Shown here one piece after another: positions 1 through 60,452 of a stretch of DNA of 61,511 nucleotides. Position numbers and translations under genes: made by a program. Positions within the stretch are counted from its first letter, which is position 1, and the number at the start of each line of letters is the position of its first letter. Source of the stretch: Nemertoderma westbladi (Eukaryota > Animalia > Xenacoelomorpha); contig JAUCBJ010006112.1 in the NCBI GenBank assembly GCA_032718475.1, positions 1 through 61,511 of the forward strand, read 5' to 3'. The notes beneath the pieces were generated by a model. It searched no databases. It was not told the origin of the DNA and saw nothing but the letters and a program-made list of their open reading frames with translations.

Positions 1-1340
1 GGGGTGGCTGTGTGGTGTACGTACGTACATGTATAAGTAGTGTGGGGGGCTGTGTCGTGAACGTCCGTACACATGTATCAGTAGTGTGGGGGGCTGTGTG
101 GTGAACGTACGTACATGTATCAGTAGTGTGAGGGGGCTGTGTGGTGAACGTCCGTACATGTATCAGTAGTGTGGGGGGCTGTGTGGTGAACGTACGTACA
201 TGTATCAGTGTTGGGGGGGGGGCTGTGTGGTGTACGTACGTTACATGTATCAGTAGTGTGGGGGGCTGTGTGGTGAACGTACGTACATGTATCAGTAGTG
301 TGGGGGGCTGTGTGGTGTACGTACGTACATGTATCAGTAGTGTGGGGTGGCTGTGTGGTGTACGTACGTACATGTATAAGTAGTGTGGGGGGCTGTGTCG
401 TGAACGTCCGTACACATGTATCAGTAGTGTGGGGGGCTGTGTGGTGAACGTACGTACATGTATCAGTAGTGTGGGGGGCTGTGTGGTGTACGTACGTTAC
501 ATGTATCAGTAGTGTGGGGGGCTGTGTGGTGAACGTACGTACATGTATCAGTAGTGTGGGGGGCTGTGTGGTGTACGTACGTACATGTATCAGTAGTGTG
601 GGGTGGCTGTGTGGTGTACGTACGTACATGTATAAGTAGTGTGGGGGGCTGTGTGGTGAACGTCCGTACACATGTATCAGTAGTGTGGGGGGCTGTGTGG
701 TGAACGTACGTACATGTATCAGTAGTGTGGGGGCTGTGTGGTGAACGTACGTACATGTATCAGTAGTGTGGGGGGCTGTGTGGTGAACGTCCGTACACAT
801 GTATCAGTAGTGTGGGGGGCTGTGTGGTGAACGTACGTACATGTATCAGTAGTGTGGGGGGCTGTGTGGTGAACGTCCGTACACATGTATCAGTAGTGTG
901 GGGGGCTGTGTGGTGAACGTCCGTACATGTATCAGTAGTGTGGGGGGCTGTGTGGTGAACGTACGTACATGTATCAGTAGTGTGGGGGGCTGTGTGGTGA
1001 ACGTCCGTACATGTATCAGTAGTGGGGGGGGGGGGGGGGGGGGGCTGTGTGGTGTACGTACGTTACATGTATCAGTAGTGTGGGGGGCTGTGTGGTGAAC
1101 CTCCGTACATGTATCAGTAGTGTGGGAGGCTGTGTGGTGAACGTCCGTACACATGTATCAGTAGTGTGGGGGGCTGTGTGGTGAACGTACGTACATGTAT
1201 CAGTAGTGTGGGGGGCTGTGTGGTGAACCTCCGTACATGTATCAGTAGTGTGGGGGGCTGTGTGTGTGTGGTTTACGTACGTAGAACATGTATCAGTAGT
1301 GTGGGGGGGCTGTGTGGTGTACGTACGTACCGTACAATCA
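1..1340 (-). repeat. 42(-44)-bp minisatellite, ~31 copies, truncated by the window edge; derived from the 3' end of exon 1493-1346
   Basis: Plus-strand unit gtatcagtagtgtggggggctgtgtggtgaacgtacgtacat. The minus strand reads ACACAGCCCCCCACACTACTGATACAT-GTACGT, versus the exon end ATACAGCCGCCCACATTACTGATGCACAG|GTAGGT. Confidence 0.92.
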
Positions 1341-1345
1341 CCTAC

Positions 1346-1493
1346 CTGTGCATCAGTAATGTGGGCGGCTGTATATTGGACGACCCCGATACATCTATTG
1401 TTTTCGCCCTTTCGAGATTAGCGCGAGGTTTGTCCATCGGTTTATGGTGTCTCTTTAAATCAACACCTTCTTCTCGACTTCTGCCTCCATTAC
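1346..1493 (-). CDS. Internal coding exon (148 nt), probably the WDR7 exon that follows 33480-33336
   Basis: gttttag|GTAATG...CACAG|gtaggt. Only the phase-1 frame is open (GNGGRSREEGVDLKRHHKPMDKPRANLERAKTIDVSGSSNIQPPTLLMH), matching the phase-1 end of the WDR7 exon at 33336. The peptide would fall in a poorly conserved WDR7 region, so homology is not recognisable. Confidence 0.6.
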
Positions 1494-2741: not shown

Positions 2742-4150
2742 CCCTATTACCACTGGGGTGTTTTGACCATTAGCACCACTGGGGGGGGGGGGGGGGCCGA
2801 TTCGGCCCACCCACTATATTTTTGTAGTCGTCCAATGAAATCCTACAAAATTTGGGCTGTTGGTGAAACAACTATAGATGAACACTACCAAACCTTAAAA
2901 AGTTAAAATTTCATAAGCAGGGACTCATAATTTTGATGAAAAATAAAAGTAGTCCCAGGACAAAGTTACAAAATTTTTCGTTTTCTAAAAACTTATAGTG
3001 TGGCAGTGTTGGCTAGATTTAGTAGGTTTTTCAAGACGCTGAATCGAATGTGATTATATTCCACTTCCAAAAATTGAAGTGGATGCTATTTTTCGTGCAC
3101 CTAAGAAGTGGGCGTGGCACTTCAAATTTTGAAAAATTAGATATTCAGAAAATGCCCCTAATTTTTTTATTTCAACGCATCTTTATGGGTTTTCTGGGCC
3201 GCTGAATCGATTGAAAGTAATATAGAAGCCTGAAGACTGAGTGGTTCGCCATTTTTGGTGCACCAAAAATAGGGCGTGGCACTTCAAATTTTGAAAAATA
3301 TGAGATTCGGAAAATACACTAAAGTTTTGATTTGCAAAGCATTTTTATAGGTTTTCTGGAGCGCTGAATCGATTGAAAGTAATATAGAAGCCTGAAGACT
3401 TAGAAGTTAGCCATTGCCTTTAGTGTTTTTTCCGAATAAAGTAATTTTGAAAATTTGAAGTGCCACGCCCTAATTTTGGTGCACCGAAAATTACGTACAC
3501 AAAGGATTTGAGGCTTCTATATTACTTTCAATCGATTCAGCGCTCCAGAAAACCTATAAAATTAATTTAAATTCAAAACTTTAGTGAATTTTCCGAATCT
3601 CGTATTTTTCAAAATTTGAAGTGCCACGCCCTAATTTTGGTGCACCAAAAATGGCGAACCACTAAGTCTTCAGGCTTCTATATTACTTTCAATCGATTCA
3701 GCGCTCCAGAAAACCTATAAAAATGCTTCGAAATCAGAACTTTAGTAAATTTTCCGAATAAAATAATTTTGAAATTTTAAAGTGCCACGCCCTAAATTTG
3801 GTGCTCCAAAAATGACGTACCACTACACTTACATGCTTGTATAGAGCATTAGAGTGATCCAAACCAATAAAAATAAATAAAAATAGCCCAAACATAAATA
3901 ATTACTAAATCACGAATGATTTTGTAAAATTCGAAAATTTCAAAAATTTTGGTGCTGGAGACCAAATTTTGAGGTGGCACCCACATCGAAAAGTAGAAAT
4001 CCAATTGCAACGGCGTTTTTTGCAAAAGATGCAGCATTAAATTTGGCTAATTCTCACAAAAAATTGGGCCGGTACGTAATGTGGTTGCATAGTTACAGCA
4101 ACTAAAATCTAGGAAGGGGCCGATTCGGGCCCCCCCCAGTGGTAATAGGG
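2742..4150. mobile_element. piggyBac-type non-autonomous element (MITE) with internal inverted subrepeats
   Basis: TTAA|CCCTATTACCACTGGGG ... CCCCAGTGGTAATAGGG|TTAA: terminal inverted repeats starting CCC with TTAA on both sides. Internal ~160-180 bp blocks (gggcgtggcacttcaaattttgaaaa) recur in both orientations. Confidence 0.88.
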
Positions 4151-7401: not shown

Positions 7402-7476
7402 GCCAAAACTGATTTCGAACAAATTGATGATCAATAGCTCTGATACTTGCGTTACCGAGACTGATTGAGGGAATTA

Positions 7477-8193
7477 AGTCAAACAAACTCCCTGCAGTCC
7501 TGACATTTGTGGACTTCAAGAAGCATTCGACTCAATCCATAGAGGTAAAATGCTGGAAATCCTAAGAGCTTATGGAATACCAGAAGTAATTGTTGCTGGC
7601 ATTGGATTGTTATATTGTGACACAGAAGCACAGGTACTCTCACCAGATGGTGAAACTGAGTTTTTCTCAATCCTGGCTGGCGTACTGCAAGGTGACACAT
7701 TAGCACCATTACTATTTGTAATTGTGCTGGATTACGCATTGAGGACGGCCACAAAGGGTGAAGATCTGGGATTCACACTTCAAGAACGCAGAAGTAGTAG
7801 ATATCCGGCAACTACAGTCACAGACACCGACTTTGCGGGTGACATCGCCCTGCTCTCTAATACGCTAGCAGATGCACAGCTTCTACTGAATAAAGTGGAG
7901 AGGGCTGCTAAGGGGGTTGTATTGCATATGAATGCTACCAAGACCTAATTTAATTAGGTCTTGCCAAATTAGGTCTAATTTATGGAAACTTGACAACAAT
8001 TGACAATGTTCAACTAAGGAAGGTTGACGACTTCCAGTACCTTGGATCGTGGATAGAGTAGCAAAAAAAGTCAGAAGCTAGGAGAGTAGAGGCATGGGTA
8101 GCGAAATTGCGACAACTATGGAGAATCGGGAAGCCTGGAAGGATCTCATTTCCGCTGTCTGAGTTCACTCGACCTAGTAGTAGTAGTAGTAGT
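7477..8193 (+). mobile_element. 5'-truncated, degraded RTE-clade LINE with (TAG)n tail
   Basis: RT motifs FVDFKKAFDS, GVLQGDTLAPLLFVIVLDYALR, DTDFAGDIALL (FADD mutated) and VDDFQYLGSW. Ends in tagtagtagtagtagtag. Confidence 0.9.
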
Positions 8194-33255: not shown

Positions 33256-33519
<264 letters not shown>

Positions 33520-34552: not shown

Positions 34553-35026
34553 GATTCTTAGAAAACATAGAAGAGCTGAAAATTATATTCCCAGATTTCA
34601 TAACTTTTCATAACCTTTATCGGCAAATGTTTTGGTAATATTTATATTTTCACCAGTTTAATACTTTTCGGTGGGTGACCCTATTATTCCAAGGCGTGAA
34701 AAAAGTGAAGATTTCTACAATTGGATACTTTATCTCAATTCACTGTCCTATAAGGTTTTTTGGGGTGCTGATTGCATTGCACCTTATTACATGTTTATCT
34801 ATACATATATATCTGTGTTGGGATAATTTTTGGCTCCAAACATGTTGTACGAAAAGTGCAAGTAGCCGAAAAATTTAAATTTATTTACAATAAATGATTG
34901 CAATTTTTACCTAAATTTAGTTTATATTGGGTTTTCTGCCGGCACTGAATATGATAAAACATGTCATGGGGTCACTCATGCAAAGGGTTACTTTTCGGCC
35001 CCACTTAATAGCGGAAAAAGTATTAT

Positions 35027-35805: not shown

Positions 35806-37667
35806 ATAGCAGAAAAAAACAACTTATAATTTTCCCGGTAGGAGACCTTACCAAAATTTAAACCCCTGGAAAATGTAACCATCGAATTAAGACCGGAAAA
35901 CCTAGTAGATGACATTTTTATCGAACAATTTTGATATTTTGTATTTTTCGAAAAATGTGACTAAATTCTTGTCTTTTCGTGCACTAGTGCAACACTGGAA
36001 AAAGTTAGATGAAATAAAGGGCACCAATGAGCTCAGCGTATGCGAAGTATGTACAGGGTTAAGCTCCACAGCACAATTCACCCTTTAAAAATAAAAGTTA
36101 ACAGAAACTACATCGCGCCATATTGAACTGCACTATACATAGCCGCTATCGATTGGACGAGTGATACAGCTATTGTTCCTGCAGCGATCTGACAGCTAAT
36201 CGATTCGGGCTGGCTAACAAGCATTCACTGGGGGAAATATCTACATCGATAATTTGATCTCGATGTTACAAAATGATTATATGGAGGCGTGAAGGAAGCA
36301 AACTGGCACCAAGGCAATTCCAATTGGTGCGAATGACACTCGAGTGTCTTGATGAAAGTTCGACTGTACAATAATAATTCAGTGAAACACACACTGAGAA
36401 TTTGAACGACATGAGCCTCAGGCAAGAGTACCAAATTTCCACCATTAAGCTACTAACAGTAGCCTGCCATAGGTAACTGCAATTATACACAAAGAATTTG
36501 GAGTTGAGCTGTTAATCTAATGCAACTGTAATTAACGATGAAATATAATGGGTTTGTTCAGAAATTGAAAAAATTACGAAGCACGTCACCGGGGGTTGAA
36601 CCAGCGCTACGTACGTTTCGGGCTACCAGACCACATCAGTAGCCCCCGACTTGCCCCTGACCCTTGCTCTCCCATCTAATACACTTCGATTGAACAGGTA
36701 GTCTTAAGTTGCATATATCCTATCTCTAACAGCGGACCTACCGGCCTTGTAATGGATTTCTCGTGCTCCTTGGCACGATAAGCTCCTAAAACGGCTTTTA
36801 ATCTCAAACAGGTTCCAGGTAGTGCTCTACTTTCGCTTAGTGTTTTGGTTTTCCGGCTAACATAATATATTTCCACTAGAACACGGTCTTTCAATGACTT
36901 GTTATTTACGGACATCCACAACTTTCCAATATAGTACAAAAAAACACAGTGATTTTCTGTTCTTCCCAAATAGTACTGTATATTGCTTCCTTCTAACAAA
37001 TAAAATAACTTACTGTAATACTGTAGAAAAACCTCTGGGATGAGGAAAAAGATAGAAACCGGGTGAGGGGTGCTTTGGGTCCGTTAGGATCCAAAGTATA
37101 GCCTCTAATAATCCAAAAAGCAGAGAAAAAATATACCGTATTTTTAGTTTTATTTTTTGTTTTGCTAAAAATACGCCGGAAAAAATATACCGTATTTTTA
37201 GTTTTATTTTTTGTTTTGCTAAAAATACACCGGAAAAAATATACAAATAAAGGGAAAAGAAAATCTGATAATGAATAAAATCTCAGAACTATAAGTCATG
37301 AAAAAAGTCACAGATAAAGTCTATGGATAAACGTCTTAATAAATTGTGAAAGTCGTGAGAAACGTCGTAATAAACTTGGTGCAGCTTCACGCTATTGGAA
37401 CTTGGCGATAGTGCAGAACACCAGATTACCGTCTGAGTCCAAACAGGGGGGGGGGGGGGGGGGGACCGATTGGACTTAAAAGGTTAGCTGCAATTTGCTC
37501 TCAGACTATATAGTTTATTCTGGCGAACCTGGAATAAACATATAGCCTGCGGACAGTGCACCAGCACTACCGTGAGTGACAGAGCCGAGTCAATGGATAC
37601 GCTGCTTATTTTGCCCGACGGGCAAAAGTAAGCACACAAACGTTCCGGGCCAGCCTAGCCAGTAAAC

Positions 37668-37910
37668 TGAAACCAATGGCGGACACGTTTTACGTTCCTG
37701 GCAATCGCACAGCCTTTCGCAGGCCCGACCCAGCAACAAAGACGGCCCCACCTTGGAGCAGAGCTGACTTCTAGGCTAAACAGTTTAGCCAGTAAACGCA
37801 AACCTAGGCTGAATCGTCTTACGTTCCTGGCAATCGCAAAGCCTTTCGCAGGCCCGACCCAGCAACAAAGACGCCCAACTTTGGAGCAGAGCTGACTTCT
37901 AGGCTAAACT
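37668..37910. repeat. ~129-bp tandem duplication in a GC-richer segment
   Basis: ttacgttcctggcaatcgca.agcctttcgcaggcccgacccagcaacaaagacg...ttggagcagagctgacttctaggctaaac occurs twice. Confidence 0.85.
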
Positions 37911-39085
37911 TTTGCTGTACTGAGGAGCAGAGCTCACTTCAGGCAGCTGGGGTTGAAGACTCTTGTTTTTTGTCCCGATGCGGCCCTATTTATAACCCGA
38001 TGTGGGGTCAATATGGAGTTGACCCCTAATTATCACCTGCGCACAGTTGGACTTTCTGAGCAGAGACTTTACGTTCAAACCATGTTAAAATATGATTACT
38101 CATTATAATAGACTAATTAATAATTGGTGCCTGGATGGAGTTTTGAGGTGACTAGTCAATCACTCCCTACTGCTATTGGGTGGTGGCAGTAGGCTGTGCA
38201 CTGGGGGGCCGGTGTAAGGGAAGGCCTGGATAGTGCATTGGATGGAGTGTATTGGTCGGACAAGGCAAGGCTTGACACGCCCGCCACGACTTAGGATGTC
38301 TGGGTTGGGACAATGAGTCATAATATGGGATATTGGATAATATTCTGAGAATAATATTTTGGTAAATATTTCCGGGATGAATATTACGGCGAATATTTCT
38401 GAGATGAATATTACGACTGGATAAGAAAGGGGGAATAATTATGTTGTAATTATTTCGTTTTTAAAAACAGAGTCCAGAGGAAGTGTATTTTGTATGTTTG
38501 CCTACTGGGGCGCGAAAAATCGATTACAGGCCTCAAGTATGTTAGAGTGAAACAGGAGGGAATTATAAATAAATACATATTCAGCTCGAGTATTAATAAT
38601 AGTATGCTGTCATGTGATATTGATATAATGATTATAATGCAACGTGCATATAGAGCTGGTTCAACCCCCAGTGACGTGCTTCCTCATTATTTCCATTTCT
38701 GAACAAAACCATTATATTACGTATTATAAATAAATGTATAAAATAAAATAAAAATAATATCTAGTTGACCTCAGGACTAGCTCCATAAAATACTAAGCGT
38801 AGTAATAATATCCTGAGTATCGTTATGGCCCGGATATGTCGGAGGTTATCTAAGCGGGTTAGGATAATTAGTTTACGTTTAACTTGAAACGCAGACATTT
38901 TTAGAATAATGACGTTCCTACAGTTCATTAATTGCCGAAATATACTGGATACCGGAATTCAACTCATCCGCACAACCAGGACAACAGTCAGAGAGCAACG
39001 ATTCGAAACCGGAAAAGATTGACGGAACTGGAAAAATTTGTTAGCTACAGCGAATTATTTCAGAGCAAATTAAAGAGTAACTAAC

Positions 39086-39265
39086 CACGTCCAGCTCAGG
39101 ATCCAACCCCCACGCATGCAGACAACTGATCAACAATTGGGCGATGTCCATCACCAGGTTGGAATCCATTAGGGTCAGCGTCTTCTGGTGACGGCTGGTC
39201 TCCTCTAGTTGTTCTACTGGGTTGCTATCGTTGTCTTCATCGCTGTCCGACAAATTTTCTAAAAC
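39086..39265 (-). CDS. WDR7: WDR7 exon
   Basis: ttgtttag|VLENLSDSDED...KTLTLMDSNLVMDIAQLLISCLHAWGLDPELDV|gttagt. 180 nt, phase 0/0; the SCLHAWGL motif is diagnostic. Confidence 0.92.
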
Positions 39266-39612
39266 CTAAACAACAAGCGGATAGTTAATTTATTAATTAT
39301 CCAAATATATTAATAATAAATTAATTGTTGTGGAGTGGAGTAACGGTTAATTACATAATGTAATGGAACAGGTACCAAATTCGAGTCCCAATAGGGTCGG
39401 TTGATATTATTCGCTATTATGTTGTCTTAGGCACACATACACACACACACACCCGGCATATTATAACCTGGTGAAGTTTATAACCTAGGTACCGGGTCCG
39501 AGCCTCAAGTTGATTTTTCGCTATGGAGAGCATTATCATACTGTTTCATTACATTGTAAAGTTAATGTATTAATTGTACACGTGACACGGTAAAGTGCGT
39601 CCACTTGCATAT

Positions 39613-39770
39613 TATCTTACCTGTTGTTTTGCCTGCTCGAAATGTTTGTGTAGAAATACGAACTTTCATTCTCTTACCTGTTGTTTTGCCTGCTCGAAAT
39701 GTTTGTGTAGAAATACGAACTTTCATTCTCTTACCTGCTGTTTCACCTGCTCGATATGTTTGTGTACGAA
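39613..39770 (-). repeat. 57-bp triplication of a WDR7 exon end plus donor
   Basis: CAG|GTAAGA donors at 39734, 39677 and 39620, each preceded by a copy of ...CACAAACAT.TCGAGCAGG..AAACA.CAG. Confidence 0.92.
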
Positions 39771-40018
39771 GGCGAACGCCCGCTCCCGTATCTTCGGCGA
39801 TGCCGTAGTAACACGCTTTAGTTGCTCCGTCCGCGAATGCTCTGCGGGGGAACTGGAATCCCGAGACATAGAAGCCCGGAGACGTTCGTCGCTTAGCAAC
39901 TGGACGATGAGGGCCTCGGTGTCGAAGAGAAGAAGATGAATGTCTGAATCCTTGGGGTTGGCGCTGACAGGCTGTATGGAGAGAGCCATGGAGGAAGGTT
40001 GGGGTTGGTGGACGGAAT
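39735..40018 (-). CDS. WDR7: WDR7 exon
   Basis: tatctctag|..SVHQPQPSSMALSIQPVSANPKDSDIHLLLFDTEALIVQLLSDE...HIEQVKQQ|gtaaga. 284 nt, phase 1/0. Confidence 0.92.
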
Positions 40019-40094
40019 CTAGAGATACAAGAATGTATGCAAAGCTATACAATATAATTATATTAAATCAGGAATACCAATAATAGACTGCTAC

Positions 40095-41264
40095 GTGGAA
40101 ATCAGAATGGGTTCCGTAAAGGTCGTGGGACCATGGAGCCCATTTTGGCACTTAGAAGGATAATTGAAGAGTTATCAAAAAAGATAGACAGGCATGTTAT
40201 CTTTGTTGACTTCTTCAAGGCCTTTGATTCAGTCTCTCGCTCACGTATGTTCAGCATACTTTCATTATATGGGATTCCTGATGAAATTATTGCAGCAATC
40301 AGATCAGTATACGATGGTTCGACAACATTTGTGTCTACTGTTGACGGTGACACAGAACCATTTGAAGTGTTATGGGGCGTCCTCCAGGGAGACACACTTG
40401 CACCATTCTTGTTCATAATTGTTGTTGACTATGTTCTACGCATGTCTTTAGATCATCATAATGATGATGGGGTGATGATAACTCCACCTACTGGCTCCAG
40501 AAGTCGAGGAAATCCTGCCAAGTACCTAATTGATCTAGACTTTGCTGATGACTTAGGAGTACTCTCAGAATCACTAGAGGGAGCCCAACGGCTCCTCAGC
40601 TCATTAGAACATTCTGCTTCTAGTGTTGGTCTTTTTATTAACTCCAGAAAGACCAAAATTTTGACAGTTAACTTTGAAAGTCCTCAGCAAGTCTCTGATC
40701 GGATGAGCATAAGCTCAAAAGATGGTATGCTTGAGCATGTGGATGACTTCTGTTACCTGGGATGATAGATCCGGAAGTCAGGTGAGGACCTTCGAATACG
40801 TAAGGGAAAGGCATGGGCAGCCTTGAATAGGCTTTCCAGGATTTGGAATTCACCGAGAATTAATCGGACACTTAAGGTCCGATTATTTAGAGCAGCAGTA
40901 GTTCCAGTACTCCTCTATGGGAGTCCATGCTAGGCTCTAACTGCTGAGGACACCAAATCTCTGGATGGCACATTCACAAGAATGCTACGCCGGGTTCATT
41001 GTGTCAAGTATAATGCACACATCTCCAACCAGACACTATATAACATTGGAGGTGTCTCATTGGTTCCCCCAAGCTTGTCACTAGAACAAAATCGCCTCCG
41101 CTTTGCAAGACATTGCTTTCGCCGTGAGGACCAGCCAGTGCATAATCTTGTACTTTGGCAGCCTCATGGAGTGAATAAGCATGGTGGACAGCCCATGACT
41201 TTCTTGAGACTATTAATTCTACGCATGTCCTTAGATCATCATAATGATGATGGGGCGATGGTTA
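40095..41264 (+). mobile_element. RTE LINE fragment (RT plus downstream), inactivated, followed by the start of a second copy
   Basis: NQNGFRKGR, FVDFFKAFDSV, GVLQGDTLAPFLF, DLDFADDL and VDDFCYLG, with in-frame stops. At ~41217 the sequence restarts at LRMSLDHHNDDG. Confidence 0.93.
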
Positions 41265-43705: not shown

Positions 43706-43800
43706 TATATGTGAACGTCCCCATAATAGACTACAATATGTTCTATATTTTAATTGAAAGTTGAATGTTGAAAGTTGAAAGCTCATGTGTAACCCGGGCT

Positions 43801-44475
43801 TTACTCCACCTACTGGTTCCATAAGTCGAGGAAATCATGCCAAGTACCTAACTGATCTAGACTTTGCTGATGACTTAGGAGTACTCTCAGAATCACTAGA
43901 GGGAGCCCAACGGCTCCTCGGCTCATTAGAACAGGCTGCTTCTAGTGTTGGTCTTTTTATTAACTCCAAGAAGACCAACATTTTAACAGTTAACTTTGAA
44001 AGTCCTCCGAAAATGTATGATGGTATGCTCAAAGGATGGTATGCTTCACGACTTCTGCTACCTGAGATCATTCGAATACGTAAAGGAAAGGCATGGGCAG
44101 CCTTGAATAGGCTTTCCAGGATATGGAAGTCACCGAGAATTAATCGGACACTTAAGGTCCGATTATTTAGAGCAGCAGTAGTTCCAGTACTCCTCTATGG
44201 GAGTCCATGCTGGGCTCTAACAGCTGAGGACACCAAATCTCTGGATGGCACATTCACAAGAATGCTACGTCGGGTTCTGTATCAGGTACAATGCACACAT
44301 CTCCAACCAGACACTATATAACATTGGAGGTGTCTCATTGGTTCCCCCAAGTTTGACACTAGAACAAAATCGCCTCCGCTTTGCAGGACATTGGTTTCGC
44401 CGTGAGGAACATCCTGTGCATAATCTAGTACTTTAGTAGCACATGGAGAAAATAAGCATGTTGGACAGCCCATGA
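43801..44475 (+). mobile_element. RTE LINE fragment, continuation of the copy split by the Harbinger element
   Basis: YLTDLDFADDLGVLS...RIRKGKAWAALNRLSRIWKS...VVPVLLYGSPCW; near-identical to 40480-41195. Confidence 0.92.
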
Positions 44476-46521
44476 GACGCCTTTTAAACAGGGTTGCCTC
44501 TCTATTTCAGTTTCAATTTTCCCTAACTTTCCCGACATTTCCCTGACTTTATGAAAAAATTACCTGACTGAAGTTTACATTTGACTTCTACCTGTATTTT
44601 TTTCTTCTTGAAGTATATATAGGATATTTGTGGAAATTTGTCGAAATTTGGAATATAGGTTCAGAAGAACCCTGCTTCCAATTCCTCGGAACACAATTTT
44701 GCCTCAAATGCTCTGGAGCCTTTTTAGAACCAAAAGGCCCCAAAAAAAGGGCTTTTTTTGGGCCTTTTTGATATAAAAAGGCTACAGGGCATTTCCAACC
44801 AAATTTGTTCAGAAGAAGTATGGAGAAGGGTATTCTTAACAAGTGTACCAAATTTCAACTCATTTCAGTCAAAATTGGCGGATAAATAGCTTTTTTCATG
44901 AAAAAACGTCATTCTGAAATATGGGTGTTTAAAGCTTGAGGAACAATTCAAACCTCCCCGCTATTTTAGATAATACCATTTTTCTACATTTCTATATTAT
45001 ATTATATTTTCTATATTTTTCTTATTTTTCATGCTTGCTAAACATATAACTATAGTAAAACATTTTTCTAGCAATTTTATTCATATCTGTACCGCGAGAG
45101 CATTTTTTATGAAAAAGGCCCCGTACAATTGTAAAATATAGTGCTTCTCGAAGGCTTTTCAAAAATCAGACTAGCTCTTACGTTTTGGGTAATAACTTGA
45201 GTTTGAGAAAAGATATGAGAAAACTTCTTGCAGATTTGAAATCTCCATTAAATTCGGCACATGATAGAATAAAAAACTTTTTTGTCAATTTCCAAAACAG
45301 GAGGGTGCTACCCCCGTTAATATTTCTGCTATTATTTTAGGTCCATGTATGAATTCGTTGCCAAGTTTACTATAATTCAAGATTTAACGTTCTTCACAGA
45401 TTTGGTTGAAGGGCGGATAACATTTGACCAGGGCTCAACAAAATAAAAACGCAGAGGGTTCAAAATAACGCAGCGTATTTTAAGAGAGAGGGGGGTGGAT
45501 GGGATCGGGCCCCGTATTTTGAAAATGGTAAAATTTTTTATGATCATATCCTGTGCCGAATTTAATGGAGATTTAAAATCTACAAGCATTTTTCAATTGT
45601 TTAAGGCCATTTCATCAGAAAGGCTCCCAAAGTAAAAAAGATATGAATAAAATTGCTAAAAGTTATTGTCGAAACATGAAAGATCCTATTATCTGTATTT
45701 TTCCTTCATCGTTAAACCCATTTTTCTCAGATCTATTTCTATTTCTTAAACAATTCTGACTGAAAACACAAAACGGCGCTTTTTGAGCATTCTTGTGTAT
45801 AAAATGGCCGAAGCTCAATTTCAGCCAACATTGCTTTATGGCACTGGATATATATAATAATGATTTGAACCGATTCATAAAAAAAATTACACTGAATAAA
45901 ACACAGATTGAAAAATTGTGGTGCAGTATAAAATAAGGTGCGGTATTTTGTATAGCCTTTGGGACAAAAAATAATATTTGGAGTCGCTAAAGTAAATTTT
46001 AGTTACTCCTCTTCACTTAAGCACCAATTAAAGCTAGATATTATATTATTCAGCAAATGCATTGGTATAGGTGGAGGGGTGGGGGGTAGTGAGTAGTGGA
46101 TATTGTGCATCGACTCGACACCCTGTAGGGCCTAGTCTATTGAAATGTTAATGTAAATTTAAATCAATCCTGGTTTTCTAATTGATGGGTGGGTGGGGGG
46201 GGGGGGGGGGGGGGGGTGTCCAAATCCAAGGTCGCTTCGCATGTTCCCTTCAGAATGAACAGGTACACATGCAACTTATACAATAATTTATTATACCGCT
46301 ACAGCTATAATTTCAGTTACAACTTACAAGGTTTATAAATTTCATGTCTATTAAATGGAAAATCTTAAAATAACGCAATTTTCATGGTTTTTGCTCAATA
46401 ATAGTTGAATAACGCAAAATTTTGGAAATAGCGCGACGCGTTAAAATAACGCAGTGGTGGGAGCCCTGCATTTAACCCATATATTAAATTTTATGGGAGA
46501 TAATCTAAGTTGTTGACTCAC

Positions 46522-46719
46522 TTTCCTCCCCCTGCTGCCCCTTTAGCTGCTGGATCCTCAGATGGGCGACGTTCTTCAGCGCGGTTAGATTGCGTCGTTT
46601 AAGGACGGCTGTGAGTTGGTTACGTAGACCCATGAGCGTGTCGCTAGGGGTGAGGGCTTCGTCGCAGGCGGCGAGGATATCGTCGGCTTGGGAACCCTGG
46701 ACCACTCGGTCGAGGTGAC
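46522..46719 (-). CDS. WDR7: WDR7 exon
   Basis: ttcctttag|(G)HLDRVVQGSQADDILAACDEA...AVLKRRNLTALKNVAHL...GEE|gtgagt. 198 nt, phase 1/1. Confidence 0.92.
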
Positions 46720-47238
46720 CTAAAGGAAGGAAGGAACATCGGATGAACGGGAACCCTGGACCACTCGGTCGAGGTGACCGAGGAAGGAACATCGGACGAA
46801 CGGGAACCCTGGACCACTCGGTCGAGGGGACCGGGAAGGAACATCGGATGAACGGGAACCCTGGACCACTCGGTCGAGGTGACCTAGGGAAGGAACATCG
46901 GACGAACGGGAACCCTGGACCACTCGGTCGAGGGGACCGGGAAGGAACATCGGATGAACGGGAACCCTGGACCACTCGGTCGAGGTGACCTAGGGAAGGA
47001 ACATCGGACGAACGGGAACCCTGGACCACTCGGTCGAGGGGACCGGGAAGGAACATTGGATGAACGGGAACCCTGGACCACTCGGTCGAGGTGACCTAGG
47101 GAAGGAACATCGGATGAACGGGAACCCTGGACCACTCGGTCGAGGTGACCTAGGGAAGGAACATCGGACGAACGGGAACCCTGGACCACTCGGTCGAGGG
47201 GACCGGGAAGGAACATCTGATGAACGGGAACACTGGAA
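46690..47238 (-). repeat. 53/54-bp array (~9 intronic copies) of acceptor plus exon start
   Basis: Minus unit GATGTTCCTTCCCTAG|GTCACCTCGACCGAGTGGTCCAGGGTTCCCGTTC.TCC; the first 30 nt after AG equal the exon start. Confidence 0.95.
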
Positions 47239-47292
47239 TATTTGCATATTAAATAATATAATTCAAGCAAATTTTCATGAATAGCAGTATCA

Positions 47293-47493
<201 letters not shown>

Positions 47494-47764
47494 CTAAAAC
47501 AAATGGAAGAACAAGAAGAGCATTAAAGATCAGCATTAAATATTAGAACTACCGCGATACAATTAGTTGAATGAAAAATTTTAAGATTTACTTTTAATGA
47601 AAATAATTATTCACAATTAATTCTACCTTTTCGCCAATTGAACGACAATTAAAAACTAAGTAATTTTCTATAAACAACATCCTAATACTTCGCCAACAGA
47701 GTCTACCTCTCCATCTCATATTCATTCTATTTCTACTGACTGAATTATTTTCTATCGCCTATCA

Positions 47765-49535
<1,771 letters not shown>

Positions 49536-49564
49536 TGTCGGAGTTGCACTGATGCTGTTTGTTA

Positions 49565-49822
<258 letters not shown>

Positions 49823-50012
49823 CTAATAACTGCAAAATGCCTGCTGCAAAATAACTGTAAGTCGTAATTGTCTCTCTAACCTGTTTCTTAACTAACCTGC
49901 TTCATTTGTTTTTTTCCACTTTTACTTTATTTCCAATTTCAATGAACGGGTTGACATTCCCTTTATTTTATACTTAATGGCGCTAAATTATTACAGACTC
50001 AACCAATCTTAC

Positions 50013-50165
50013 CAGTTGATCGATGATACCAGCTGGTCTGGGTGCTATCGTCTCCCAGACGTCCAACAAACTCGATATCGTTATGGGATACAGAGGCTGA
50101 ACGGGAGTGTCGATATCGGTGGCAGCTGGCATCTCATCCGGTATTACCCAGATACACAACCGACC
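50013..50165 (-). CDS. WDR7: WDR7 exon
   Basis: ccccgacag|GRLCIWVIPDE...SLLDVWETIAPRPAGIIDQL|gtaaga. 153 nt, phase 0/0; PAGIIDQL motif. Confidence 0.93.
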
Positions 50166-52133
50166 CTGTCGGGGAAAAAACAAAACAGATACACAACCGT
50201 CGGAGTCGGGGAAAAAAAACAGATACACAACCGACGGAGTCTGGGAAAAAACAAAACAGATACACAACCGACCCTGTCGAGGAAAAAACAAAACAGATAC
50301 ACAACAGACTGAGTCGGAGAAAAACAAAACAGATACACAACCGACGGAGTCGGGGAAAAACAAAACAGATACACAACCGACGGAGTCGGGGAAAAACAAA
50401 ACAGATACACAACCGACGGAGTCGGGGAAAAACAAAACAGATACACAACCGACGGAGTCGGGGAAAAACAAAACAGATACACAACCGACCCTGTCGAGGA
50501 AAAAACAAAACAGATACACAACAGACTGAGTCGGAGAAAAACAAAACAGATACACAACCGACGGAGTCGGGGAAAAACATAACAGATAGACAACCGACCC
50601 TGTCGGGGAAAAAACAAAACAGATACACAACAGACTGAGTAGGGGAAAAACAAAATAGATACACAACCGACTGAGTCGGGGAAAAACAAAACAGTTACAC
50701 AACCGACGTAGTCGGGGAAAAACAAAACGGATACACAACAGACTGAGTCGGGGAAAAACAAAACAGATACACAACCGACGGAGTCGGGGAAAAACAAAAC
50801 AGATACACAACAGACTGAGTCGGGGAAAAACAAAACAGATACACAACAGAATGAGTCGGGGAAAAACAAAACAGATACACAACATACGTAGTCGGGGAAA
50901 AAACAAAACAGATACACAACAGACTGAGTCGGGGAAAAACAAAACAGATACACAACCGACCCTGTCGGGAAAAAAACAAAACAGATACACAACAGACGGA
51001 GTCGGGGAAAAACAAAACAGATACACAACAGACGTAGTCGGGGAAAAACAAAACAGATACACAACAGACGGAGTCGGGGAAAAACAAAACAGATACACAA
51101 CAGACTGAGTCGGGAAAAACAAAACAGATACACAACAGACGTAGTCGGGGAAAAAACAAAACAGATACACAACAGTCTGAGTCGGGGAAAAACAAAACAG
51201 ATACACAACAGACTGAGTCGGGAAAAACAAAACAGATACACAACAGACGTAGTCGGGGAAAAAACAAAACAGATACACCACAGTCTGAGTCGGGGAAAAA
51301 CAAAACAGATACACAACAGACTGAGTCGGGGAAAAACAAAACAGATACACAACAGACTGAGTCGGGAAAAACAAAACAGATACACAACAGACGTAGTCGG
51401 GGAAAAAACAAAACAGATACACAACAGTCTGAGTCGGGGAAAAACAAAACAGATACACAACAGACGGAGTCGGGGAAAAACAAAACAGATACACAACAGA
51501 CTGACTCGGGGAAAAACAAAACAGATACACAACAGACTGAGTCGGGAAAAACAAAACAGATACACAACAGACGTAGTCGGGGAAAAAACAAAACAGATAC
51601 ACAACAGTCTGAGTCGGGGAAAAACAAAACAGTTACACAACCGACGTAGTCGGGGAAAAACAAAACAGATACACAACAGACGGAGTCGGGGAAAAACAAA
51701 ACAGATACACAACAGACGGAGTCGGGGAAAAACAAAACAGATACACAACAGACTGACTCGGGGAAAAACAAAACAGATACACAACAGACTGAGTCGGGGA
51801 AAAACAAAACAGATACACAACAGACTGAGTCGGGAAAAACAAAACAGATACACAACAGACGTAGTCGGGGAAAAAACAAAACAGATACACAACAGTCTGA
51901 GTCGGGGAAAAACAAAACAGATACACAACAGACGTAGTCGGGGAAAAAACAAAACAGATACACAACAGACGGAGTCGGGGGAAAAACAAAACAGATACAC
52001 AACAGACGTAGTCGGGGAAAAAACAAAACAGATACACAACAGACTGAGTCGGGGAAAAACAAAACAGATACACAACAGACGGAGTCGGGAAAAACAAAAC
52101 AGATACACAACAGACGTAGTCGGGGAAAAAAAC
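50149..52133 (-). repeat. 36-38-bp array (~53 copies) of acceptor plus exon start
   Basis: Minus unit TTTTGTTTTTCCCCGAC-NNN-GTC(G/T)GTTGTGTATCTG; the real junction is TTTTGTTTTTTCCCCGACAG|GGTCGGTTGTGTATCTG. Confidence 0.95.
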
Positions 52134-52152
52134 ATAATGTGGGGAGGACGGT

Positions 52153-52870
52153 GAATCGACTAACCACAGAGTCGCCCCTTAGTAACAACTTATAGAATCG
52201 ACTAACCACAGAGTCGCCCCTAAGAAACAACTTATAGAATCGACTAACCTCAGAGTCGCCCCTTAGTAACAACTTATAGAATCGACTAACCTCAGAGTCG
52301 CCCCTTAGTAACAACTTATAGAATCGACTAACCTCAGAGTCGCCCCTTAGTAACAACTTATAGAATCGACTAACCTCAGAGTCGCCCCTTAGTAACAACT
52401 TATAGAATCGACTAACCTCAGAGTCGCCCCTTAGTAACAACTTATAGAATCGACTAACCTCAGAGTCGCCCCTTAGTAACAACTTATAGAATCGACTAAC
52501 CTCAGAGTCGCCCCTTAGTAACAACTTATAGAATCGACTAACCTCAGAGCCGCCCCTTAGTAACAACTTATATAATCGACTAACCACAGAGTCGCCCCTT
52601 AGTAACAACTTATAGAATCGACTAACCTCAGAGTCGCCCCTTAGTAACAACTTATAGAATCGACTAACCTCAGAGTCGCCCCTTAGTAACAACTTATAGA
52701 ATCGACTAACCTCAGAGTCGCCCCTTAGTAACAACTTATAGAATCGACTAACCTCAGAGTCGCCCCTTAGTAACAACTTATAGAATCGACTAACCTCAGA
52801 GTCGCCCCTTAGTAACAACTTATAGAATCGACTAACCTCAGAGTCGCCCCTTAGTAACAACTTATAGAAT
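52153..52870 (-). repeat. 42-bp array (~17 copies) of exon end plus donor, in frame
   Basis: Minus unit TTCTATAAGTTGTTACTAAGGGGCGACTCTGAG|GTTAGTCGA encodes FYKLLLRGDSE-VSR with no stop. Confidence 0.96.
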
Positions 52871-53026
52871 GGTTGACGCCTTCCATAGAAAAAAGTTAGA
52901 GCCGGAGGGCAGGGAAGTTCTTCACCGTCAACCACCTCTAGATGGCGTAACACATGTGGCGCCATATAAGAGCTATGGGGCGGCTTAGATACACCTCTGC
53001 GGAAGCTGCCGCTGTCAGGATTACAA
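52837..53026 (-). CDS. WDR7: WDR7 exon (first donor assumed)
   Basis: attatttag|.CNPDSGSFRRGV...ELPCPPALTFFYGRRQPFYKLLLRGDSE|gttagt. 190 nt, phase 2/0; comparable to WDR7 CPPVTRFFYG...KLLIQGDS. Confidence 0.92.
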
Positions 53027-54130
53027 CTAAATAATAAAATATCAGATAATAAACAATAAAGTAATCGCAGCTAAAAATACATTTCTGAGACAGGATGAAT
53101 AGCTGAACATTAATTTATTTTTATTCATTTAGTCAGAACAAATAAAAATCATCGTGGGCCCAGCTTAGCAAGAATGGTAGAAGATGGCGCTCTAACCATT
53201 CCGATAAAGAGATAGACCTGGGAATACGACTTTGGTGCGCTAATAATCCTTCTACTACAGTATTATACTGTAATCGGCCTGCTGCATTGCAGCTGCACAT
53301 TGAGATGCTTTTGCTGACTAACAAATAAATTTGTGCGACCACCCATGGACCACCATACAATATATAATTGGTTGGCTGTGATGCAGCGTGCATTAAGAAT
53401 GCGCTGACACAACTCCTTATCTACCATGACTTTCGCGAGAATATCCACATCTTCAAGAGCAGTATCCTTAATCAAGAAAGTAATGGGCTGTCCACTATAA
53501 TAGTGGCCCTTATTGCACTTTTTCTCCGAATTTCGATTTTTAATAGTGATATTTTGTACTCCATCGCGTGAAAAAAACATTTTGAAAGATAATTTATCTT
53601 TCAACTTTTTAATAATCTATGGTTAACAACCGTCGGTTAACAACCGTCGGTTAACAACCGTCGGTTAACATATCCAACCGTCAGAGTTATCGAAGTCTGA
53701 CGTCTACCGGTCTGTCCATCAAAATGTACGACAGACAGACATACCGATCGAATGACAGACAGACAGACATTATTCCTCCAAACATTAAAGCTGACATTGG
53801 AAATTATATCAGCGACCCCGAAAACCCACGTGATAAAAATTTGCATTGCTCAATGGTAAGCTTCCTTAATGCCAGACATTATTAACCAGTCAACACATGG
53901 GCACATTATGTTGTCAGTGGTAATGATTATGAAGTGATTTTCAATATTGACATAAACCGAAACAAGAGAAACTAAATGCCACTAAATATGTGCAGAAAAT
54001 CATTAAAGGTTTGAATCTAAGCAGTTACGGGGTGATTGTTGTAAGTATGAACTTGTCACAAAGTATTAGTCGTTATAAAAACAGCCCAATCGACAGCCGT
54101 AATAGATTTTCTTCTGATCGGTTTTGGTCA

Positions 54131-54163
54131 GTGTTGCAACGGGATCCCGATCCTGTTGCAACA
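54131..54163. other. Near-perfect hairpin (possible minimal MITE remnant) immediately before the 56-bp array
   Basis: gtgttgcaac-g-ggatc-cc-gatcc-t-gttgcaacac. Confidence 0.7.
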
Positions 54164-54171
54164 CTAGTTTG

Positions 54172-55928
54172 GGCCTACACGTTACATAACAGTTTCATTT
54201 GTAACAGGTACGTAACAACTTATTGTTGGCCTACACGTTACATAACAGTTTCATTTGTAACAGGTAAGTAACAACTTATTGTTGGCCTACACGTTACATA
54301 ACAGTTTCATTTGTAACAGGTACGTAACAACTTATTGTTGGCCTACACGTTACATAACAGTTTCATTTGTAACAGGTAAGTAACAACTTATTGTGGGCCT
54401 ACACGTTACATAACAGTCTCATTTGTAACAGGTAAGTAACAACTTATTGTTGGCCTACACGTTACATAACAGTTTCATTTGTAACAGGTAAGTAACAACT
54501 TATTGTGGGCCTACACGTTACATAACAGTTTCATTTGTAACAGGTAAGTAACAACTTATTGTGGGCCTACACGTTACATAACAGTTTCATTTGTAACAGG
54601 TAAGTAACAACTTATTGTTGGCCTACACGTTACATAACAGTTTCATTTGTAACAGGTACGTAACAACTTATTGTTGGCCTACACGTTACATAACAGTCTC
54701 ATTTGTAACAGGTAAGTAACAACTTATTGTTGGCCTACACGTTACATAACAGTTTCATTTGTAACAGGTAAGTAACAACTTATTGTGGGCCTACACGTTA
54801 CATAACAGTTTCATTTGTAACAGGTAAGTAACAACTTATTGTGGGCCTACACGTTACATAACAGTTTCATTTGTAACAGGTAAGTAACAACTTATTGTTG
54901 GCCTACACGTTACATAACAGTTTCATTTGTAACAGGTACGTAACAACTTATTGTTGGCCTACACGTTACATAACAGTTTCATTTGTAACAGGTACGTAAC
55001 AACTTATTGTTGGCCTACACGTTACATAACAGTTTCATTTGTAACAGGTACGTAACAACTTATTGTTTGCCAACACGTTACATAACAGTTTCATTTGTAA
55101 CAGGTAAGTAACAACTTATTGTTGGCCTACACGTTACATAACAGTTTCATTTGTAACAGGTACGTAACAACTTATTGTTTGCCAACACGTTACATAACAG
55201 TTTCATTTGTAACAGGTAAGTAACAACTTATTGTTGGCCTACACGTTACATAACAGTTTCATTTGTAACAGGTACGTAACAACTTATTGTGGGCCTACAC
55301 GTTACATAACAGTTTCATTTGTAACAGGTAAGTAACAACTTATTGTTGGCCTACACGTTACATAACAGTTTCATTTGTAACAGGTACGTAACAACTTATT
55401 GTTGGCCTACACGTTACATAACAGTTTCATTTGTAACAGGTACGTAACAACTTATTGTTGGCCTACACGTTACATAACAGTTTCATTTGTAACAGGTACG
55501 TAACAACTTATTGTTTGCCAACACGTTACATAACAGTTTCATTTGTAACAGGTAAGTAACAACTTATTGTTGGCCTACACGTTACATAACAGTTTCATTT
55601 GTAACAGGTACGTAACAACTTATTGTTTGCCAACACGTTACATAACAGTTTCATTTGTAACAGGTAAGTAACAACTTATTGTTGGCCTACACGTTACATA
55701 ACAGTTTCATTTGTAACAGGTACGTAACAACTTATTGTGGGCCTACACGTTACATAACAGTTTCATTTGTAACAGGTAAGTAACAACTTATTGTTGGCCT
55801 ACACGTTACATAACAGTTTCATTTGTAACAGGTACGTAACAACTTATTGTGGGCCTACACGTTACATAACAGTTTCATTTGTAACAGGTAAGTAACAACT
55901 TATTGTGGGCCTACACGTTACATAACAG
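54172..55928. repeat. 56-bp minisatellite, ~31 copies
   Basis: Unit gttggcctacacgttacataacagtttcatttgtaacaggta(a/c)gtaacaacttatt. Confidence 0.97.
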
Positions 55929-57165
55929 TGTATGTTGCCCCCCTTGTCAGAATTTCAAATATGTGTTTTTTGATTTAATCTATAGAATAATTTAATGTGG
56001 ATATAAAATCTGAAAACCGCTTAGCGAAACCTCTTTTAGTTCTGAAGTTAACGCTGGTTTTCTGTATAACGGTCTGTCAGTCAAATTGTAAGACATACAG
56101 AGAGACTAGATTGCACCAAAATACTACCCCTTTAAAACGTTAGAGTCAAATATCAGAAGTTTTGACAAACAATTAATTATGTGACCAAAAATGTGGTGTG
56201 GTATGTCAATGATTAACTCTATTCTAGTCGGAATCTAAACTTTTAATAAATTATCTAACCTGGAAGGTAAAGCCTCACACCTTTCTTTCGCCCCGTATAT
56301 TCGTAACAGAGATATCCTAAAGTATCGAGAAAGTTGTATCTTTCTGTTTATTACTAGTAGTCAAGACGTTCTAGAACTAGAAGTAGTTCTCTAGAAGCGT
56401 TCCTTTCTAGTATTTATTAACATTAATAATGTTATTTATATTCCAGAACATTATGTATACTGTATATACTTTGGTATTATTGTCATCAGTATACTATACA
56501 CCATATCCATTGAATATTGTGTCTTATCAAATTAATTTAGTAGAGTGGCTAAGATTAGCGAACAAGATTACCAAAAGCTTTTTGGGGAACCGGTACATTT
56601 GGGGATAAAAATGGTTGATAAAACAAGAAAATCCTATGCCCCCAAAAAATGTGGCCAAATTAACACTTTCTCAATGTTTATTTCCTTAGCAACATGGATT
56701 TTACAAAGCAACAAGGTAACTATCGGTTAGATTTTTCCCAAATTCGGTAAAGACAATCTTTAGTCTAATCGTTATCAATTTATTGAACAATGTACTCCTG
56801 GAGTCATGGTTACCAATATACTTACCAGGGCAACGGAAATTTATCTACTATAATTTCATCAGTTTATTATAATTTGGCTGGTACAATATAGGAAGCTCAT
56901 TAAAATCGTTATTATAAATAAACTATTGTGGATTTTAAACTAAAACAAATAAGTAAGTTACACCAGAAATCATTACAACAATCCCAATTTGCTACTATGT
57001 CAACTTCCTCTAAATTTACAAAATTATACTTATACAGTGCAGTAGAGTTCGGTAGCTCTAGATCACAAATTATTTAATATTGATTATTATGAAATAATGT
57101 TTGTAAATTAATAGCCTCGTGCAGATGCTAAGGGAAAGCGCATCCCTACGTACATTGTTTATCAC

Positions 57166-60100
57166 AGAGATACAAAAGAACTTACTTTGAAGGAACTCTG
57201 TAGAGATACAACGGAACTTACTTTGAAGGAACTCTGTAGAGATACAACGGAACTTACTTTGATGGAACTCTGTAGAGATACAACGGAACTTACTTTGATG
57301 GAACTCTGTAGAGATACAACGGAACTTACTTTGATGGAACTCTGTAGAGATACAACGGAACTTACTTTGACGGAATTCTGTAGAGATACAACGGAACTTA
57401 CTTTGAAGGGACTCTGTAGAGATACAATGAAACTTACTTTGATGGAACTCTGTAGAGATACAACGGAACTTACTTTGAAGGGACTCTGTAGAGATACAAT
57501 GGAACTTACTTTGATGGAACTCTGTAGAGATACAACGGAACTTACTTTGAAGGGACTCTGTAGAGATACAACGGAACTTACTTTGATGGAACTCTGTAGA
57601 GATACAACGGAACTTACTTTGAAGGGACTCTGTAGAGATACAATGGAACTTACTTTGAAGGGACTCTGTAGAGATACAACGGAACTTACTTTGACGGGAC
57701 TCTGTAGAGATACAACGGAACTTACTTTGTAGGAACTCTGTAGAGATACAACGGAACCTACTTTGACGGGACTCTGTAGAGATACAACGGAACTTACTTT
57801 GGCGGGACTCTGTAGAGATACAACGGAACTTACTTTGATGGAACTCTGTAGAGATACAACGGAACTTACTTTGATGGAACTCTGTAGAGATACAACGGAA
57901 CTTACTTTGAAGGAACTCTGTAGAGATACAGCGGAACTTACTTTGGCGGGACTCTATAGAGAGAGATACAACGGAACTTACTTTGAAGGGACTCTGTAGA
58001 GATACAACGGAACTTACTTTGATGGAACTCTGTAGAGATACAACGGAACTTACTTTGATGGAACTCTGTAGAGATACAACGGAACTTACTTTGTAGGAAC
58101 TCTGTAGAGATACAACGGAACTTACTTTGTAGGAACTCTGTAGAGATACAACGGAACTTACTTTGATGGAACTCTGTAGAGATACAACGGAACTTACTTT
58201 GAAGGGACTCTGTAGAGATACAACGGAACTTACTTTGATGGAACTCTGTAGAGATACAACGGAACTTACTTTGAAGGGACTCTGTAGAGATACAATGGAA
58301 CTTACTTTGAAGGGACACTGTAGAGATACAACGGAACTTACTTTGACGGGACTCTGTAGAGATACAACGGAACTTACTTTGTAGGAACTCTGTAGAGATA
58401 CAACGGAACTTACTTTGATGGAACTCTGTAGAGATACAACGGAACTTACTTTGATGGAACTCTGTAGAGATACAACGGAACTTACTTTGAAGGAACTCTG
58501 TAGAGATACAGCGGAACTTACTTTGGCGGGACTCTATAGAGAGAGATACAACGGAACTTACTTTGAAGGGACTCTGTAGAGATACAACGGAACTTACTTT
58601 GATGGAACTCTGTAGAGATACAACGGAACTTACTTTGATGGAACTCTGTAGAGATACAACGGAACTTACTTTGACGGGACTCTGTAGAGATAGAACGGAA
58701 CTTACTTTGATGGAACTCTGTAGAGATACAACGGAATTTACTTTGATGGGACTCTGTAGAGATACAACATGACTTACTTTGAAGGAACTCTGTAGAGATA
58801 CAACGGAACTTACTTTGTAGGAACTCTGTAGAGATACAACGGAACTTACTTTGTAGGAACTCTGTAGAGATACAACGGAACTTACTTTGAAGGGACTCTG
58901 TAGAGAGATACAATGGAACTTACTTTGAAGGGACTCTTTAGAGATACAACGGAACTTACTTTGACGGAACTCTGTAGAGATACAACGGAACTTACTTTGT
59001 AGGAACTCTGTAGAGATACAACGGAACCTACTTTGACGGGACTCTGTAGAGATAGAACGGAACTTACTTCGACGGGACACTGTAGAGATACAACGGAACT
59101 TACTTTGTAGGAACTCTGTAGAGATACAACGGAACTTACTTTGACGGGACTCTGTAGAGATACAACGGAACTTACTTTGATGGAACTCTGTAGAGATACA
59201 ACGGAACTTACTTTGTAGGAACTCTGTAGAGATACAACGGAACTTACTTTGACGGGACATTGTAGAGATACAACGGAACTTACTTTGTAGGAACTCTGTT
59301 GAGATACAACGGAACTTACTTTGGAGGGACTCTGTAGAGATACAACGGAACTTACTTTGTAGGAACTCTTTAGAGATACAACGGAACTTACTTTGATGGA
59401 ACTCTGTAGAGATACAACGGAACTTACTTTGTAGGAACTCTGTAGAGATACAACGGAACCTACTTTGACGGAACTCTGTAGAGATACAACGGAACTTACT
59501 TTGAAGGGACTCTGTAGAGATACAACGGAACTTACTTTGTAGGGACTATGTAGAGATACAACGGAAGTTACTTTGTAGGAACTCTGTAGAGATACAACGG
59601 AACTTACTTTGACGGAACTCTATAGAGAGAGATACAACGGAACTTACTCTGAAGGGACTCTGTAGAGATACAACGGAACTTACTTTGATGGAACTCTGTA
59701 GAGATACAACGGAACTTACTTTGAAGGGACTCTGTAGAGATACAACGGAACTTACTTTGAAGGGACTCTGTAGAGATACAACGGAACTTACTTTGACGGA
59801 ACTCTATAGAGAGAGATACAACGGAACTTACTTTGAAGGGACTCTGTAGAGATACAACGGAACTTACTTTGAAGGGACTCTGTAGAGATACAACGGAACT
59901 TACTTTGACGGAACTCTATAGAGAGAGATACAACGGAACTTACTTTGATGGAACTCTGTAGAGATACAACGGAACTTACTTTGACGGGACTCTGTAGAGA
60001 TACAACGGAACTTACTTCGATGGAACTCTGTAGAGATACAACGGAACTTACTTTGACGGAACTCTATAGAGAGAGATACAACGGAACTTACTTTGAAGGG

Positions 60101-60452
60101 ACTCTGTAGAGATACAACGGAACTTACTTTGAAGGGACTCTGTAGAGATACAACGGAACTTACTTTGACGGAACTCTATAGAGAGAGATACAACGGAACT
60201 TACTTTGAAGGGACTCTGTAGAGATACAACGGAACTTACTTTGTAGGGACTATGTAGAGATACAACGGAACTTACTTTGTAGGAACTCTGTAGAGATACA
60301 ACGGAACTTACTTTGACGGAACTCTATAGAGAGAGATACAACGGAACTTACTTTGAAGGGACTCTGTAGAGATACAACGGAACTTACTTTGAAGGGACTC
60401 TGTAGAGATACAACGGAACTTACTTCGATGGAACTCTGTAGAGATACAACGG
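57166..60452 (-). repeat. 36-bp array (~90 copies), apparently copies of the upstream WDR7 exon end plus donor
   Basis: Minus unit TATCTCTACAGAGT(T/C)CC(T/A/G)TCAAA|GTAAGTTCCGTTG = Y-L-Y-R-V-P-S-AA|. Phase 2 joins the T starting exon 53026 to give YLYRVPSNCNPDSGSFR, comparable to WDR7 YIYKLPASCLPASDSFR. Confidence 0.9.

Follow-up and report, generated by a model that had tools for sequence, protein, structure and literature searches.

The stretch of Nemertoderma westbladi DNA analyzed here (contig JAUCBJ010006112.1, 61,511 nucleotides (nt), called the window below) carries part of the gene WDR7, several introns of which are occupied by minisatellite arrays. An earlier note, made from the sequence alone, had claimed that WDR7 introns are built from amplified copies of their own splice sites. 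WDR7 is the host gene and lies on the minus strand, with nine exons located by tblastn between 53026 and 33336; the WD40 exon shares 68-74% identity with lancelet and lamprey WDR7. Together with a further exon at 1346-1493, these nine form a single open frame of 627 codons with GT/AG ends (the 10-exon model). The phase of this tenth exon is compatible with the WDR7 model and its position corresponds to a variable linker. It had no match in a profile of ten WDR7 proteins (probability 0.4%) or in Pfam, and the spliced contig described below stops one base beyond the donor at 33336, so that the next exon is not visible there. We assign it to WDR7 as the probable next exon, which would imply an intron of 31.8 kilobases (kb).

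Tandem Repeats Finder recovered all seven arrays of the earlier note, named A1 to A7 here, and five further large arrays without a junction link that its list had omitted (starting at 15305, 27884, 28470, 33821 and 54172), giving 12 in total. The units of these five match nothing else in the window. All seven arrays had been said to span a splice junction. A2-A6 each physically span a homology-supported WDR7 junction and A7 is tied to one by homology, whereas A1 has lost its donor and derives from the tentatively assigned exon. The remnant of a donor-type duplication, first placed at 49541-49560, was confirmed with its position shifted by one base.

Table 1 WDR7 exons, junction arrays and duplication remnant in the window (bp, base pairs)
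Feature	Position	Strand	Support or structure
Exon with AG/GT ends, probably WDR7	1346-1493	-	frame, phase, variable-linker position
WDR7 exon, edges without array	33336-33480	-	tblastn, frame model; loose end of X3 contig
WDR7 exon	39086-39265	-	tblastn, X3 contig, frame model
WDR7 exon, source of A2	39735-40018	-	tblastn, X3 contig, frame model
WDR7 exon, source of A3	46522-46719	-	tblastn, frame model; loose end of X3 contig
WDR7 exon	47298-47493	-	tblastn, frame model
WDR7 exon (WD40 repeat), source of A4	47825-48045	-	homology, frame model
WDR7 exon, source of remnant	49570-49738	-	tblastn, frame model
WDR7 exon, source of A5	50013-50165	-	tblastn, frame model
WDR7 exon, source of A6	52837-53026	-	tblastn, frame model
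A1, donor-side derived	1-1330	-	42 bp, ~31 copies, continues past window edge
A2, donor-type	39611-39766	-	57 bp (43 exonic and 14 intronic nt), 2.7 copies
A3, acceptor-type	46690-47237	-	54 bp (54/52 alternation), 10.2 copies
A4, acceptor-type	48028-49535	-	~39 bp, ~37 copies
A5, acceptor-type	50149-52133	-	36 bp, 55 copies
A6, donor-type	52153-52870	-	42 bp, 17.1 copies
A7, donor-type	57166-60453	-	36 bp, ~90 copies; source exon beyond window
Donor-type duplication remnant	49542-49561	-	18/20 match to exon 49599-49618, offset 57 nt

Both types of border are duplicated, with four donor-type and three acceptor-type arrays. The units of A2 and A6 consist of an exon end and the first 8-14 intron bases, while those of A3, A4 and A5 consist of a pyrimidine tract, the AG and 17-30 exon bases; across the arrays the exonic portion of a unit measures 17-43 nt, slightly wider than the 15-35 nt first given. 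Counting the authentic site, GT is kept in 3/3 copies of A2 and 17/17 of A6, and AG in 32 of the 36 scored copies of A4, in 5/10 of A3 and, at its original position, in 5/54 of A5, where 21 of 53 scored copies have a new AG 2 nt downstream. The A1 unit goes back to the 3’ part of exon 1346-1493 with adjoining intron and, contrary to the earlier claim, carries no copy of the authentic donor GT because ~17 nt including that donor are deleted. The expectation that the spliceosome must choose among dozens of near-identical sites applies to A4, A6 and A7 and not to the other arrays. The A5 acceptor lies inside an inverted repeat of 13 nt, with arms of 5 bp and a loop of 3 nt. It is in the loop that the copies vary, and changes there remove or shift the AG.

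The source exon of A7, which the earlier note had supposed, was looked for in 53027-61511 and not found, and the array touches no junction within the window. Its unit encodes YLYRVPS followed by a phase-2 donor, where homologous proteins have YLYQLPSN, and the donor falls at the same codon in 3 of 5 inspected homologous genomic loci, the alignment having ended earlier in the other two. By this homology A7 is made of copies of an ancient WDR7 donor whose exon lies beyond the window, and GTAAGT occurs 85 times in its ~90 units. Each unit also has a stretch resembling an acceptor, placed 12 nt ahead of the donor, which gives ~85 in-frame pseudo micro-exons with at least 15 sequence variants. We rejected functional 12-nt micro-exons, since the unit is the end of a conserved exon and the copies are only 24 nt apart. 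The non-exonic sequence between A7 and its source exon (60454-61511) is likely an insertion and contains an 81-bp direct repeat; no transfer RNA genes were called in 56000-61511.

The statement that the introns are built from such copies holds for three of the nine complete introns, which are 90-99% array, and partly for a fourth (124/469 nt); the other five are not array-built. The intron at 50166-52836, which holds A5 and A6, is 99% array. The non-array residue of the three introns is 19, 34 and 60 nt, and collapsing their arrays leaves 47-84 nt.

The recurrence at exon boundaries had been judged unlikely to arise by chance, and the outcome depends on the null. Under a uniform null, in which each array is reduced to a single unit and which takes in 36 kb of non-coding DNA, 24 junctions and the 12 large arrays, 0.3 junction-spanning arrays are expected and five are seen (P 6e-6); P is 1.6e-4 with the junction count doubled and 1.9e-4 with all 19 arrays. 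In a scan independent of the array list, an echo was found at 7/24 junctions compared with 2.7% of 9045 pseudo-junctions. All seven belong to the WDR7 model (7 of its 20 junctions), and none of the four junctions of the neighboring PDE and DRC10-like genes reaches the echo threshold. Conditional on the host intron, however, 3.7 spanning arrays are expected against the five seen (P 0.17), implying that the junction excess is mostly an excess in three tiny introns.

To examine the A2 region (38900-40100), we compared four sequencing runs, X1-X4, of which X2 and X4 come from one sample. None of the runs found to contain this sequence is recorded as RNA; X3 is labelled ‘DNA?’ and was treated as RNA solely on account of a spliced contig of 2451 nt (depth 189), whose joint corresponds to the intron 39266-39734 and whose loose ends run into the exons beginning at 46522 and 33480. 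The joint uses the original A2 donor rather than either of the copies lying 57 and 114 nt beyond it. No X3 contig covers the A2 copies, which does not prove that they are never used; contigs drop rare forms. The A2 repeat is also present in X1 as an 87-nt piece (depth 30 versus 18 on both flanks) and, with one 57-nt unit fewer, in X2/X4, a difference to which contig simplification may contribute. A2 is thus real, length-variable and spliced at its original site in this run, and the original site is presumably used at the other six arrays as well. That the arrays are assembly artefacts is scarcely credible. The direct check against independent runs covered A2, and for the long arrays the copy numbers are provisional. 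On the other hand, X1 contains 0.61 of the sampled words of 46400-53100, of which non-array words make up only 47% of the distinct 31-mers, so X1, which may be the source sample, must contain array words. The copies also bear structured variants such as the 54/52 alternation of A3.

We compared the intron positions with 78 WDR7 loci from a metagenome scan, a sample without close relatives and without deuterostome gene structures chosen by name. At the A3 junction, 25 loci have a GT..AG intron of the same position and phase, 34 share the donor only, 2 the acceptor only, and 12 are intronless; the A4 acceptor is shared with 20 homologous loci. Together with the A7 donor, these junctions are ancient intron positions, and the arrays copied old borders without creating those introns. 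The intron 50166-52836 differs. Its position is crossed uninterrupted in 18 loci (13 of which have introns elsewhere), in two more a donor lies 5 nt beyond it, and none of the 20 covering loci matches it; it may be lineage-specific, a possible gain or slide. For the A1 and A2 junctions, no alignment with the homologous loci could be used. At the position of the intron 33481-39085, 17 loci likewise run through uninterrupted. The suggestion that the arrays created their host introns, by tandem duplication or by a mirage-type route (mirages are the amphioxus minisatellites discussed below), draws on the A5/A6 intron and is very improbable for the set as a whole: apart from the shared positions, what the units contain of the introns is common donor or pyrimidine-tract sequence rather than exon copies, and no uninterrupted exon sequence is duplicated, as none of nine spliced 20-mers is found.

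The modal periods of the seven junction arrays (42, 57, 54, 39, 36, 42 and 36) are all multiples of three, compared with one of the five other large arrays (23, 31, 28, 36 and 56; Fisher p 0.01, noticed post hoc). Together with the 57-nt offset of the remnant, this bias would be expected if copies were used at some rate and frame-preserving units selected, yielding length-variant WDR7 isoforms, and in A6 all 16 pseudo-donors are indeed in frame and stop-free. We nevertheless consider such selection improbable. Reading through A2 ends at a stop in codon 4, and at A1, A7 and the remnant the frame closes no more than three codons past the donor. The nearest copies at A3, A4 and A5 are out of frame, at distances of 59, 40 and 37 nt. 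The A2 RNA uses the original site, and human junction-spanning repeats with units of 37 and 100 bp, as given in the accessible part of the source, are not multiples of three. At the level of individual copies, A6 excepted, the evidence speaks against a frame-keeping role.

The arrays are ‘mirage’ minisatellites, in our view probably retained in very short introns. An ordinary DNA-level event would have duplicated 36-57 bp of genomic DNA across a WDR7 exon-intron border, and slippage or unequal exchange inside the intron would then have amplified the unit. The arrays leave one exon whole with a splice site of its own, and were likely tolerated because this exon-proximal site is still the one used. 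The local junction excess, itself real, would reflect retention: the three host introns likely once measured only ~50-85 nt. In so short an intron a duplication can survive only by crossing a border, and an array flanked closely by two exons would be sheltered from large deletions. Several observations point to duplication at the DNA level. Every unit joins exon and intron in their genomic arrangement, and 0/9 spliced exon-exon junction 20-mers were found in the window DNA at up to 3 mismatches. R-loops favor a G-rich RNA strand. Here the RNA strand is G-rich in one of the seven arrays and slightly so in a second, and five are C-rich or neutral-to-C-skewed. The nucleation by RNA-templated duplication or by R-loops and co-transcriptional damage proposed in the earlier note thus found no support; we rejected an mRNA-templated origin for its lack of spliced-junction copies and an R-loop origin for its inconsistent strand skew. 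Its other proposal, a selective filter, is supported in that the intact exon likely explains tolerance, but alone and in the form given there it cannot make junction arrays more frequent than arrays lying wholly within introns. The copies decay and homogenize as in neutral arrays, with the site lost in most or half of the copies of A1, A3 and A5. The arrays are likely harmless; the sole junction checked in RNA is spliced at its original signal.

Several points weigh against retention in short introns. The excess in three tiny introns itself needs explaining, and conditioning on the intron merely relocates the puzzle; when A7 is counted as a sixth spanning array, the conditional P falls to 0.009. 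Just 0.9% of the seed target holds four of the 12 arrays (P 2.5e-6). For the uniform null, the eligible non-coding DNA would have to shrink from 36 kb to 4 kb or less. A1, A2 and A7 lie outside tiny introns, the array-free introns in the window are at least 274 nt long, and the small ancestral sizes are read from the residue alone, which later deletion could explain. The multiple-of-three periods are not predicted by a purely neutral account, and the RNA covers one array of seven in one run whose contigs omit rare forms.

In the main rival the arrays are still mirages, but the excess is mutational: in this lineage exons or their edges would be favored sites for nucleating duplications (by recombination, repair or co-transcriptional damage), of which exon-internal ones are purged and border-spanning ones remain. 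We regard it as a serious contender that is nonetheless unlikely. In its favor are the uniform-null result, the three events outside tiny introns, and the echoes at 7/20 WDR7 junctions here against 0/122 distinct WDR7 junctions from other animals at the strength seen here. That control, from which junctions with <120 nt of intron flank had been removed, is biased low because it comes from short-read metagenome contigs that break at arrays and many of its loci are near-duplicates. The 0/4 result in the neighboring genes, the missing spliced-junction copies and the inconsistent G-richness also tell against it. A bolder reading, which we offer as a doubtful possibility, is that in this lineage one gene after another had its near-minimal introns re-inflated by duplicates of the introns’ own splice borders, under a bias for exon edges and for frame-preserving units, and that at least one intron (50166-52836) arose or slid in this way. 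If true, the genome would hold thousands of natural splice-site competition assays, acceptors included.

The remaining features of the window stand apart from these arrays. Six intron-poor genes at 4983-25283 (MRG domain, STEEP1, methyltransferase, short-chain dehydrogenase, DRC10/IQCD-like and GAF-PDE) lie between the WDR7 exons at 33336 and 1493, and would all be nested in one 31.8-kb intron if exon 1346-1493 belongs to WDR7. On the plus strand, a 56-bp array of 31 copies (54172-55929) carries in each copy a CAG followed by a GTAAGT or GTACGT donor. These donors lie on the strand opposite to WDR7 and no source exon was found in the window; an antisense gene not visible here may be its origin, which would make it the eighth junction array. 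Broken reverse-transcriptase fragments resembling long interspersed nuclear elements lie at 7478-7948, 35018-35656, 40067-41198 and 43779-44475, the last three with a mutual identity of 85-87%. Two inverted arrays of 161-162 bp units at 3078-3843 resemble a foldback element or one of the miniature inverted-repeat transposable element type.

The earlier note knew of no description of such arrays as a systematic genome feature. The type of element is in fact already known, from the ‘mirage’ minisatellites of amphioxus and from human junction-spanning variable number tandem repeats (VNTRs), and the locus is a dense new example of it. We found no genome-wide count of mirages in the literature, where their formation is described as unclear, and a search on VNTR splice donors with UPF3A found nothing. 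The locus suits a test of a mutational origin of the junction excess against retention in short introns, as well as a study of acceptor choice among up to 32 copies, and its pseudo-sites are a reminder that such copies can mislead gene models in annotation.

Amphioxus mirages occur in Adh3, the globins BflGb6 and BflGb9, troponin C and PGBD5 (PMC3087553; PMC3902484, in its accessible part). Their units span an exon-intron boundary, at 5’ and 3’ borders alike, splicing is normal, haplotypes differ in length, AG/GT is kept in many but not all copies, and the Adh3 units range from 10 to 72 bp (PMC3087553). Somatic instability has been reported for the Adh3 mirage. The WDR7 arrays share the junction-spanning unit, both borders, a size within the Adh3 range and the partial retention of AG/GT; the length difference between samples is shared as far as A2 goes, where one RNA-type run shows splicing at the authentic site. 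Unlike in amphioxus, the host is not Branchiostoma (the best WDR7 exon has 74% identity), there are up to ~90 copies compared with 3-6 for BflGb6 (PMC3087553), and all seven arrays and the remnant belong to a single gene, three introns of which consist of 90-99% array. Human junction-spanning VNTRs, in the accessible part of PMC1557585, include F7 IVS7 (37 bp), CBS IVS13, 6-16, lamin B2 and PDGF. The same part reports that F7 uses the most upstream of its identical donors and that in CBS and 6-16 splicing occurs at the two closest pseudo-sites as well. They resemble our arrays in having an authentic donor followed by identical pseudo-donors and a polymorphic copy number, and the upstream choice of F7 is that seen at A2; as far as this source goes, they are one per gene and on the donor side only, in contrast to the many arrays on both sides here. 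In tandem-duplication intron gain, splice signals at exon-intron boundaries are likewise duplicated (PMC2812944, in its accessible part; model in PMC3087553). At WDR7, pre-existing borders were copied and three introns are ancient, with the A5/A6 intron as a possible exception. The vertebrate ‘OVERMEGA’ megasatellites also overlap exon-intron junctions (bioRxiv 10.1101/2021.07.19.452908, in its accessible part); according to that part of the source, they too originate in a duplicated and then amplified exon-intron segment, but their units are at least 90 bp long and become coding repeats, whereas the shorter units of the WDR7 arrays stay intronic.

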